DNA from: Piromyces finnis finn
Taxonomy: Eukaryota; Fungi; Neocallimastigomycota
DNA length: 64,000 nt
NCBI GenBank assembly: GCA_002104945.1
Contig: MCFH01000048.1
Span: 372,001-436,000 of the forward strand
Direction: 5' to 3'
The position numbers were made by a program, and so were the translations under genes. Of the stretch, positions 24,159 through 27,799 are shown piece after piece. The first letter of the stretch is position 1. The number at the start of each line of letters is the position of its first letter. The notes beneath the pieces were generated by a model, which was given only the letters and a program-made list of their open reading frames with translations, searched no databases and had not been told where the DNA came from.

Positions 24159-25052
24159 ATGTCATCCTACGGTAAATATAGTAAATATCGTAAGATGAAT
24201 TATCCATCCAAAAGTGGATATGGATCATCCCTAAAGAAACGTACTTATTCACAATATCGCCAATCTAAGCAAGGAAATGACTCACTTTCTTTTGTTGTCA
24301 ATTGTAATCATGTTTTTTCTGCTTTTTACAATCCTTCTGATGAATCTGGTACTGCTTGTATTAATGTATGGGATGTATTACAACGCAATTCTAATTTTGC
24401 CTCTTTGAAAAACATGTATGATCAAGTTCGTATTGACGGTCTTCGTGTAAAATTATCTGTTACTGATGCTGTTACATCTATTTAACAAATTTCTCAAGTT
24501 AAGAATATTATAATTTATACAGCTTGGGATCGTACTGGTTTATCTCGTAACTAATATGTTGCTTATAGTAACGGTAATGAAGTAATTGCTGACACTGATG
24601 CAGATTCTGATGATTTAATGTATTTCAGAACACGTATTGGTAGTGGTATTGTCAATGCTAATGGAGGTGATAAGAGTATATTAAATTCCTTCCAAAGATG
24701 GAGCAAGTATTTATCTATCTATCCAAATCTCTCTAATGAAAAGGGTCAATATGTAGCCACTTCTGATATTGAAAGATTTGTTTCTCTCAGTAATTCCAAA
24801 ACTGGTGTCAATACTGTTTCTAATTTTTATAATGATGGATGTCTTTTAGATGCTATTAATTTCTCTAATCCTGTTATTCCATTTGAAAGTTCATCTGTTA
24901 GATTCAAACCTTGTCTTCTTGTTGGTGTTTTCAGTAATCAAGTTGATACATCATCTGGTTTAATTACACAATATGGAGCTACTAGTCCAGTTATTTTCAA
25001 TGGTGAATTTTCTATTTCCTGTACTTTCAAGAACCTCAAGGGAGCAAGGTAA
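24159..25052 (+). pseudogene. cap: EVE2 capsid protein (~297 codons, two in-frame TAA)
   Basis: Basic K/R/Y/S-rich N-terminus and NFASLKNMYDQVRIDGLRVKL motif; ORFs 24159 and 24618 are in frame, with stops at 24483 and 24552. Confidence 0.8.
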
Positions 25053-25105
25053 ATATATAATAATATATTTTATTTTTATTTTTTAAAATACTAATTTTTC
25101 ATTAG
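25049..25105 (+). other. Predicted 57-nt spliceosomal intron removing the capsid stop codon
   Basis: AG|GTAAAT donor, TACTAAT branch site, TTTTCATTAG acceptor. The spliced product GCA-AGC-AAT-TCT-TCT-ATG is in frame with ORF 25116. Confidence 0.75.
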
Positions 25106-27799
25106 CAATTCTTCTATGGGGGGTAACGACGAAATGAGAAATAATCAAATTACCGTGTCAGCTAATGAACAATTAATGGAAACTGATCAAACTGTTACAG
25201 CTTCTGATATATCTTTTGCTAATTATAATGGACTTACTCGAGCAGTTGTAAATGCTGAACCTTCTGAAAATGATTATAAATATGTTGAAATTACTGATTT
25301 GGTCAACTCCCCTTATGTTTTAGATAACCCTAAAGGAAAAAGATATTGTTCCTCTGTAAGATTTAGAATTAAAAAGGGTGTTGAATTGACACCAATACAA
25401 CTTCCTGGTATTATTCTTGAACTGAAATCATCTGAAGCTCGTGGAACATGGGGATGGGGATTGTTTAAAACACCTGAAACCACAGATGCTACTGTTACTG
25501 ATGAACTTGGTGTAAATAGTAATGCTACTTTAATTACTTGAGATCAATTTTCTCAAGGATAGGCAAATCAACAAGTCTCTCTTAAGAAGGGAGAAGTTAT
25601 TACTATTGTTAAATCCACTCCTAATGGTAATGAGGTTAAAACTATTCATAATGATACAGCTTTTGATAAAGTTATTAAATTTGGAGAGAAGGTTCTTTAT
25701 TTTGTTCAAAAAACTATTTCATTTGGTCAAAGAGTTGCTGATGTTGTTGTTAAAGCAATTGATGTTGTCAAGAAGGTTAAATGGGTTTGGACTGCTATTA
25801 AATTTAGTGTTTCACTTGCAGCTGTTATTATTGATGATAATGAAGTTTTAGTTGTTGATGAAAAGGAATATATTGGTTTCTCTGCTGACACCTTTGATTT
25901 CATTTCTCTTGAAAATTGCTTTTTTTTTTTCTTTAGTGAAATTTCATCTTTTAGTCATGAAGGATCTTCAAGTAATGATTTATTACTTGATAATTCTCTT
26001 AGAATTACAAATAATGGAGTTTATTCTGTTAAGGATATTGTTAATTCATTTTCTTCTCATTCTGGTAGAAATTATGATGGTTGGAGTAAGGAATCTAATT
26101 TACTATTGATGTTGATGTTGGAGATATTACAAGAACCCACGGTGAACAGAATGTTGTAACTGTTAAAAAAGAAACTATGATTAAATCGGATAACGATATG
26201 GATGTTGCTTCTTCACGTTAATTTAATGGTCGTTATTTAATTACTTCTCTTAACGATACAAAAGATATTATTGAAAACGAAGTTATTATGGGAAATGATG
26301 ATGTAATGACTCTTGATGCTGGTGATGGAATATATCCTGTTGTAAAATATGATATTTCTAACGTTTTAACTAGAGAACATTATGATTATAAAGATATTAA
26401 TGGACAGTGGGTTGAATTAAATAATAATCAACTCTATACAGTTCCGTTATATGATAATAGTAAGGGATTTGTTGGTTCTAGGGAAGTTTCATTTAAAGTC
26501 AACGTTCCTCAAAATGTATTGAAGGAATATTTTTCGAAAGCCATTTCAAATAATGGATCTTTTACCATTCGAGCACCTGATGGATTTGATGGTATTAAGG
26601 AAATTTCTTTAAATGTTGATGTTCCTACTAACAACAATAATGTTGTTAATCAAAGTAAAACAATTTCTGTTTCATCTAATGGTTCCGTTACTGTGGAACC
26701 TGATCAAGGATTTTCTGGTTTAAATAGTGTTATTATTAATATCAATGTTCAACCTAGAGTTCAGGAACTTGAAGAAACACTTAATACAAATGATCTTTGG
26801 ACTATTACTCCTGATGAAGGATATGATTATTTTTCTTCTGTTAAGGTACATGTTGATGTTCCTGAAAAATTACTTGAATTTATGTCAAATAAAAGAATTA
26901 CCTCAAATGGTAGTTTGAAAATTGAAGATTTAATGAACGATGAAAATTCTGATGGTGTTTCTAAGGATTCAACTGTTGTTGTTGATGTTCCTGTTCCTTC
27001 TGTTCAGAGTAGTAAATATACTACTTTGTCCAGTGGTGGACAATATGTTATTAGACCTAATTCTGGATATGATACGATGTCCCAAGTTACAGTTAAAGTT
27101 GATATTAAAGATCAAGAAAGTCCTAATGTAGCTACACTTGAAGAAAATATTAGTTCTAATAATTCTTATATACTTTATCCTCCTGAGGGATATGATTATT
27201 TATCATTCGTTAAGGTCGGCGTCAATGTTCCGGAAAAACAACTTAAAAAATTAACTCGAACTATTACTTCAAATGGTTGTTAATGTAAAATCCATTCAAT
27301 TTTAATTGTGATGGATTTGATGAAGTTGAACTTATGGTTAACGTTCAACCTAAGTTAACCAGCATTCCTGTTATGTATAGTTCGAATGGTACATATGTTC
27401 TTGACCCACCAACAGGTCACGATGGTTATAGTAAAATCAACGTTGAAGTTAACGTTCCTTATTCTCATAATTTACCTAATTTGGATCATTTTATTTATGG
27501 AACTACTAAATGGTATTTAGCATTTTTCCAAGCTGGTACTTCTGATGGTAGAGTTTTTAATTTGAATTCTGGACATACACTTATTAAAATTACTAAATTT
27601 GACAGTTATTATGATATTGAATGTGCTTCTGTTCCTCTTAATTACACAACAACTCACTGTTACTTGTTATAGTAATTCTATCTGTGGTGTGTTTAATGGT
27701 GCCCCTGCTAATTTTACCATGACAAACGCCTACAGTTCCGTATTGCCCAGGAAGTTTATTGAAATATTTAGTAGTAACCAAATTAAGATAACTTCATGA
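25106..27799 (+). pseudogene. ~900-aa capsid extension / fibre-like protein with ~9 beta-rich repeats
   Basis: Fragments 25116, 26288, 27334 and 27599 are linked by stops and frameshifts; repeated motif (I)(T/S)SNG.Y.I.P..GYD..S.V.V.V(D/N)VP. Confidence 0.75.

Follow-up and report, generated by a model that had tools for sequence, protein, structure and literature searches.

The window analysed here, a 64,000-nucleotide stretch of a Piromyces finnis contig, carries a capsid gene whose stop codon is overlapped by a splice donor, raising the question of whether the capsid is extended by splicing and, if so, by what. A preliminary description of the locus proposed a single intron, retention of which would give a 297-aa major capsid and excision of which would give a ~1,190-aa capsid-fibre fusion. 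We consider it probable that one capsid exon is spliced to either of two last exons, giving proteins with different C-terminal tails, the longer of which is likely to be a spike.

Organization and decay of the integrated element

The element studied (22600-27799; ~5.3 kb, from a fragmented rep gene through a hairpin to position 27799) represents a disrupted copy, inserted into the genome, of a large CRESS DNA virus. The rep gene (22600-23910, minus strand), encoding an HUH endonuclease and an SF3 helicase, was recognized in at least four pieces by tblastn with the Reps of relatives and by alignment. The remaining features lie on the plus strand. An origin-like hairpin (23931-23997), with 31-nt arms that are 84% complementary, carries TAATATTAT at 23966-23974. 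Capsid exon 1 (24159-25048), a jelly roll identified from 53 homologues and from the fold of an intact relative, is followed by a phase-2 intron of 57 nt (25049-25105) and by an alternative last exon, 2a (25106-25910, the 3' boundary being approximate), of ~270 codons without fibre repeats. A predicted second acceptor (25915-25936; T11-C-TTT-AG, phase 2) would close an 888-nt intron opened by the shared donor, and precedes a second, broken last exon, 2b (25937-27799), with ~38-aa beta-rich repeats and a terminal domain. Both last exons were delimited by homology to those of the intact relative L001. Stop codons interrupt exon 1 at 24483 and 24552, exon 2a at 25539 and 25560, and the sequence further downstream at 26219 and 27281/27286; the frame is also broken near 26100, 27280 and 27660. 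The capsid frame as it stands runs for 108 codons before a stop. The two products of the preliminary description, of 297 and 1,190 aa, would both require these lesions to be bypassed, as no open frame for either is present in the window. Hidden introns at the three frame breaks were ruled out, as there is no donor-like site near any of them.

One window protein has an entry in EukProt and NCBI, which marks the surrounding genome as eukaryotic. The window is strongly AT-rich (GC 0.12-0.42 per kb), and a low GC content is typical of Neocallimastigomycota. A homologue of exon 2b is found as a gene model in Pecoramyces/Orpinomyces. The virus behind the element is likely to have had an anaerobic gut fungus as its host, because of this AT-rich composition and because two gene models of Pecoramyces are homologues of the tail exon.

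A second endogenous CRESS element lies at 19310-21765, less than 1 kb from the element studied, and encodes a 297-aa Rep (20763-21656, minus strand) that matches Gemini_AL1_M at E 2e-5, together with ORFs resembling capsid genes at 19366-20478. It is bordered by a direct repeat of ~40 nt, as though one unit-length circle had integrated. Retroelement remnants (RVT_1, RVT_2 and RNase H) flank both viral insertions (4363-10237, 15370-17106, 45242-48347 and 52061-60132).

Conservation of a splice donor over the capsid stop codon

The geometry given in the preliminary description was confirmed: the capsid frame ends GCA AGG TAA, with the GT of the donor GTAAAT (25049-25050) overlapping the stop codon (25050-25052), and a TACTAAT branch site (25089-25095) and a TTAG acceptor ending at 25105 complete a 57-nt intron, excision of which yields A-S-N-S-S-M-G-G in frame. 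The GT donor, branch A and AG acceptor of a U2-type spliceosomal intron are all present, and are kept in relatives. The overlap of donor and stop is in itself no sign of a switch, because a GTAA donor in phase 2 always constitutes a stop codon.

A metagenome scan yielded 11 related loci from 120 pattern matches, to which a genome scan added one locus and the bin of that locus another; 11 of these 13 loci include the capsid end. The same layout was found with an in-frame acceptor in five of the 11 (L001, L002, L004, L009 and L018), the capsids of which end NNG TAA GT; these letters form a GTAAGT donor in phase 2, downstream of which come an AT-rich gap (57, 60, 112, 58 and 168 nt, respectively) and an in-frame AG; in L018, further AGs lie inside the gap, upstream of the in-frame acceptor. 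The donor is the sole GTAAGT, GTATGT or GTGAGT in the capsid-plus-extension region (1.7-3.5 kb) of L001, L002 and L004. As a control, the ends of 19 other ORFs of the relatives were inspected: GTAAGT was absent from all of them, and a G precedes the stop in five. The donor over the stop codon therefore appears to be conserved more than would be expected by chance. Neither of the two observations that the preliminary description had named as contradicting it was made, namely a lack of the splice signals or of the frame relationship in exogenous relatives, or a promoter and start belonging to the downstream gene itself.

At the protein level, 53 close homologues of the capsid were found, and its relatives form 333 clusters at 50% identity. 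We compared 197 capsid proteins, 177 of which reach the capsid end: 126 stop no more than eight residues on, 26 continue for at least 100 residues, 14 fall between these lengths and the remaining 11 could not be anchored. The terminal residue lacks an NNG codon in only 8 of the 126 short-ending capsids, versus 33 of 126 at the penultimate residue and a background of 0.32. This bias, obtained from related and thus non-independent proteins, supports a family-wide donor, short of proof.

Splicing of the intact relative L001

L001 is an intact relative of 7.4 kb, the homologous intron of which is likewise 57 nt long. A protein from its capsid cluster (P0105), encoded by a public contig, matches the predicted spliced L001 product with no mismatches in 527 aa. 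The L001 region is present in twelve RNA runs from six studies, and six runs were assessed in detail. In all four RNA runs of the first set, some contigs terminate at L001 position 2912, whereas others have their first letter at 2970 or 3710. Records joining 2883-2912 to 2970-3739 and 2883-2912 to 3710-3739 were obtained in four of four runs (two repeated, two new), with just 30 letters on one or both sides of the junction against a bridging threshold of 31 letters, so that neither junction appears as a formally listed joint. Both skipped segments start with GT and finish with AG, and the acceptor at 3710 had been predicted from the sequence before the RNA contigs were compared. One L001 donor is thus joined in RNA contigs to two exons, a 232-aa 2a and a 614-aa repeat-rich 2b, giving fusion products of 527 aa and ~909 aa, respectively. 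Four of the six runs carry identical variant letters and may come from one campaign. The contigs yield no isoform ratios, and depths (e.g. 222 for exon 1 vs. 65 and 59 for the junctions) are to be read accordingly.

The proposed intron is therefore real, conserved and spliced out in the RNA contigs of a close relative, with the production of capsid fusions; the window copy would have been spliced in the same manner.

Other features were observed at this locus. In run X4, a 218-nt record with a depth of 1177 shares L001 2880-2909 and then diverges, possibly as a chimera. A conserved ORF of ~470 aa with its own ATG, belonging to no known family, occupies L001 5661-7070 and L002 5516-6937; it is covered by RNA contigs, and no counterpart was observed in the window element. 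ORF4 of L001 and L002 was considered as an extra exon and rejected, as it has a conserved ATG and a TATA-like upstream sequence, and an in-phase AG in L001 only.

Two probable alternative last exons in place of a single extension

A single fusion of ~1,190 aa is not what L001 makes, and the "long downstream gene" of the preliminary description matches two separate exons in this intact relative. Window exon 2a is 23% identical to L001 2a over 195 aa (E 4e-7), and window exon 2b is 31% identical to L001 2b over 346 aa (E 9e-32). In L001 and L002, a stop codon, an AT-rich gap and a new acceptor separate 2a from 2b, which lie in differing frames, and both junctions of L001 are present in RNA, all of which argues against one continuous extension. 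In favour of such an extension, the window frame passes from 2a beyond the second acceptor without the terminal stop found in L001 and L002, although a run of 11 Ts near this acceptor leaves the frame there uncertain. The AG at 25935-25936 is the most T-rich AG site downstream of the window donor, is in phase 2, and lies about where the RNA-supported acceptor of L001 lies (protein alignment offsets of 119 vs. 134). The "~900-aa extension" of the window is thus most likely to correspond to two alternative last exons, of ~270 and ~620 codons. The jelly-roll exon ends at the phase-2 donor, and each downstream cassette is without an early ATG and follows an AT-rich acceptor of its own; the ancestral virus, by analogy with L001, would have used the junctions 25048^25106 and 25048^25937.

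Exchangeable tails were also suggested by other relatives. L010 and P0087 share 99.6% identity with L009 as far as the donor, beyond which they run into a different in-frame repeat-rich tail, whereas the next exon of L009 itself is homologous to L001 2a; the source library of these contigs may be DNA or RNA. The 3' parts of L009 (1500-2081) and of L007 (956-1449) look chimeric and unrelated to the virus. L018, a contig of 12,442 nt, encodes a Rep that shares 44% identity with the L004 Rep and a capsid with the same donor. At the DNA level, four ORFs lie downstream of this capsid; none has an early ATG, and all are preceded by an AT-rich gap with AG at its end. Cassettes 1 and 2 join the capsid in phase 2, whereas cassettes 3 and 4 are in phase 0, and two internal GTAAGT sites of phase 0 in the repeat region would join them in repeat register. 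The number of such internal sites in L018 is not above that expected by chance (2 vs. 0.58, P 0.11), and a swap of the tip by internal donors is put forward here as a prediction. L018 sits in a bacterial MAG bin that also contains L012, a contig with a capsid but no Rep, and two contigs with a Rep but no capsid (L013 and L015). L012 (4,649 nt, without a Rep) encodes, at 254-4454, a 956-aa capsid-tail fusion and a second, ATG-started repeat ORF, and members of its cluster lie on contigs of up to 13.5 kb.

The preliminary description had also suggested a large virus of over 5 kb; this is supported by family members of 5.6-12.4 kb. The broader picture, to which we assign about an even chance, would be that of a large, hitherto undescribed gut-fungal ssDNA virus family, with genomes reaching at least 12 kb, in which splicing works with cassettes: two to four exchangeable spike tails would be available to one capsid exon, nested donors in repeat register would swap the fibre tip, and the proportion of bare and tailed subunits would be governed by the 4-nt tandem acceptors. 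Such a system would parallel, at the level of RNA, the switching of phage tail fibres.

Capsid fold and nature of the tails

The capsid domain of L001 was modelled as a jelly roll (pLDDT 87) that matches circovirus, tymovirus and nodavirus capsids, and its Atlas neighbours carry Circo_capsid. The closest predicted structures are those of unclassified "Cressdnaviricota sp." proteins (A0A7G8LJ22, 594 aa, E 7e-20; A0A6M4B900, 771 aa, E 6e-17), which have a similar capsid fold and were deposited as single long proteins.

Exon 2b consists of ~38-aa beta-rich repeats of the type T.NG...PD.GYDG.S.V.V.VP. This repeat is common to 376 proteins, some of which, including gut proteins, have Phage_tail_C, BACON or LRR (LRR_5) domains. 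The longer tail is likely to be a spike or fibre, a reading based on the repeats and on similarity to tail-like proteins because the single-sequence AlphaFold model of exon 2b (pLDDT 36) is unusable. Exon 2a has no repeat motif and matched no family. A PHROGs search gave one weak match among 11 proteins. Nothing was found in viral_contigs, which was scanned with the capsid, with a Rep and with two alignments of capsids, in phages by tblastn with the capsid and with the repeats, or in the Atlas with the repeat region. Longer capsid homologues were not found among 7,998 candidates, a crowded set that makes for a weak test.

Possible formation of a tail-less capsid

Two relatives contain tandem acceptors of the TAG-NTAG type, 4 nt apart: L004 (1376/1380) and the second cassette of L002 (3957/3961). 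In L004, the first AG leads to a stop codon and the second to the fusion. L003 and L006 resemble products of the first AG, in that the join is occupied by TAG and the long frame is displaced by one step, and L005 has a comparable 8-nt offset. Judging from these sequences, tandem acceptors may choose between a capsid followed by TAG and a fusion. A tail-less capsid would then arise in some members through the acceptor 4 nt upstream, with TAG immediately after the join, whereas in the window lineage it would arise only through retention or through RNA ending inside the intron. The fusions would enter particles and bind the host.

The strongest competing explanation, which we consider a serious possibility although not the favoured one, is that splicing is constitutive, every subunit carrying a 2a or 2b tail and the stop codon in the donor being a by-product. 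L001 was seen in fused forms only, and the donor stop is repeatedly missing in relatives. Moreover, 26 of the 177 relatives are single long ORFs, some possibly derived from spliced RNA and one of them a 956-aa fusion on a genome-assembly contig, and the best fold matches are the 594- and 771-aa deposited CRESS capsids. Against this, a stop codon would be restored by the 4-nt tandem acceptors of L004 and L002, L003 and L006 resemble what such acceptors would produce, and short forms may be hidden in contig assemblies. Contig assembly discards short tips and small bubbles. Constitutive splicing is compatible with the choice between two last exons favoured here, and differs from it on the short form only.

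The original proposal, in which retention of one intron gives the 297-aa major capsid, its removal gives the ~1,190-aa fusion and splicing efficiency sets the spike ratio, is unlikely. Its step from retention to an abundant short capsid, and hence to a spike ratio set by splicing, is unproven. Retention is the only visible way to a short capsid in the window, the donor of which (GTAAAT) departs from the consensus, with GTAAGT in five of five relatives, and a contig of L009, from a DNA or RNA library, keeps the intron and begins 2 nt before the ATG. However, nine of the 177 relatives lack the donor stop and have, at the protein level, Tyr-Val and an intron-like tail, as from a GTATGT donor. These nine are scattered among stop-bearing kin rather than grouped (128 of 500 shuffles as clustered) in a quick tree of 90 rows, one of them mislabelled, from which one of the nine was left out; their distribution argues against a retention switch. 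In addition, the 2a contig is continuous from the junction in five of six runs, and there is therefore no abundant retained path into 2a. No intron-retaining record was seen among the L001 contigs of four RNA runs, where filtering may hide one; likewise, the zero depth at L001 2928-2964 is no evidence against retention, as this stretch is of low complexity and was possibly filtered.

Extension by translational recoding (readthrough of the stop or a ribosomal frameshift), or the existence of the downstream ORFs as separate genes, is highly improbable. In its favour, the length of the window gap is divisible by three, an in-frame ATG occurs at 25116, and the next frame of L003, L005 and L006 opens at the stop without an intron. 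Against it, the window gap contains a second in-frame stop, the lengths of other gaps in relatives (58, 112 and 797 nt) are not divisible by three, L001 2b has no Met before codon 340, and the exact GT-AG joins in RNA contigs already contradict such readings for L001.

Comparison with known systems

C-terminal capsid extensions are known from the coat protein readthrough of luteoviruses and poleroviruses, the capsid-delta fibre of Orsay virus, phage T7 10B and Q-beta A1. These share with the window family a shell domain bearing a long C-terminal extension, but they use translational recoding and have one extension, whereas splicing and two or more extensions are proposed here. The single leaky stop of luteoviruses was not found, the window gap containing two stops. 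The tips of phage tail fibres are switched by DNA inversion (Mu Gin, P1 Cin), a system similar in its constant stem and interchangeable distal cassettes; it operates on DNA in tailed phages, whereas the choice in the window family would be made on RNA, on the capsid subunit, with a putative role in host range.

Introns are known in CRESS rep genes. An intron has also been described in the mastrevirus movement-protein gene (PMC13649057), capsid splice sites were predicted in two cruciviruses (PMC7468197), and splicing of the TYLCV CP affects 0.42-1.62% of transcripts, removing sequence or shifting the frame (10.1101/2025.10.01.679800). These are likewise GT-AG introns in circular ssDNA, some of them on the capsid strand, and the accessible parts of these reports describe no alternative long last exons. 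Parvoviruses produce VP1/VP2 by alternative splicing, including from the split cap ORF of the ambidensoviruses AdDV and PfDV (PMC6521121). According to the available part of that source, they too have ssDNA and a jelly-roll capsid and make longer capsids by splicing separate ORFs, but their extensions are N-terminal and their genome is linear, whereas the extensions here would be C-terminal, mutually alternative and 230-610 aa long. The literature searched, which covered few subscription papers, contained no report of a CRESS virus that splices its capsid to a choice of C-terminal cassettes, and the accessible portions of PMC9603141 and PMC9615429 make no mention of these viruses.

The case made here involves more tails than the first reading of the locus, is weaker on the retention switch, and is supported by RNA in a relative. 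A small DNA virus could, as the RNA contigs of that relative support, use a single shell gene to make several proteins that combine the capsid with a tail. If so, its particles would carry more than one kind of likely spike. Anaerobic rumen fungi, which are important in fibre digestion, would gain a large, actively transcribed family of DNA viruses with unusually big CRESS genomes. Cassette splicing would also explain why such genomes are wrongly annotated as a short capsid and orphan ORFs.

Replication protein, origin and classification

The rep pieces of the window are 28-39% identical to the Reps of L004 and L011 (tblastn, E to 1e-35), and the same method gave no real match to the Reps of L001 and L002. 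In the alignment, the window Rep displays GKSRSGKT and IMDDF, which we take to be Walker-A-like and Walker-B-like motifs, respectively. No Pfam match, including Gemini_AL1, was obtained for the window, L004 or L011 Rep; the L004 and L011 Reps match the Gemini_AL1_M-positive Rep of the second window element (E 1e-27). The hairpin has a DNA folding energy of -20.6 kcal/mol, and its nonamer is paired rather than looped in the lowest-energy fold. One depth-2 contig links the end of L001 to its start, and L004 has a 141-nt terminal repeat.

The element has three features of Cressdnaviricota: a Rep with HUH and SF3 domains, a stem-loop with a nonanucleotide and a single jelly-roll capsid. Circoviridae have genomes of ~2 kb, and assignment to this family is not supported by size, by Circo_capsid matches, which fall below the cut-off, or by the window Rep, which is of another type, Viral_Rep matches being confined to the L001 and L002 Reps. 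Nor does the genome plan agree with that of Genomoviridae (~2.1 kb, ambisense, Rep and Cap only; PMC11463337), as the element and its relatives are larger (~5.3 kb and 5.6-12.4 kb, respectively) and the relatives have extra ORFs.

Two unrelated types of Rep accompany the one capsid module: a Viral_Rep/RNA_helicase type with TAGTATTAC in L001 and L002, and a type with a geminivirus-like helicase and TAATATTAT in the window element, L004, L011 and L018. This distribution, judged from sequence comparison, suggests that modules may have been exchanged.
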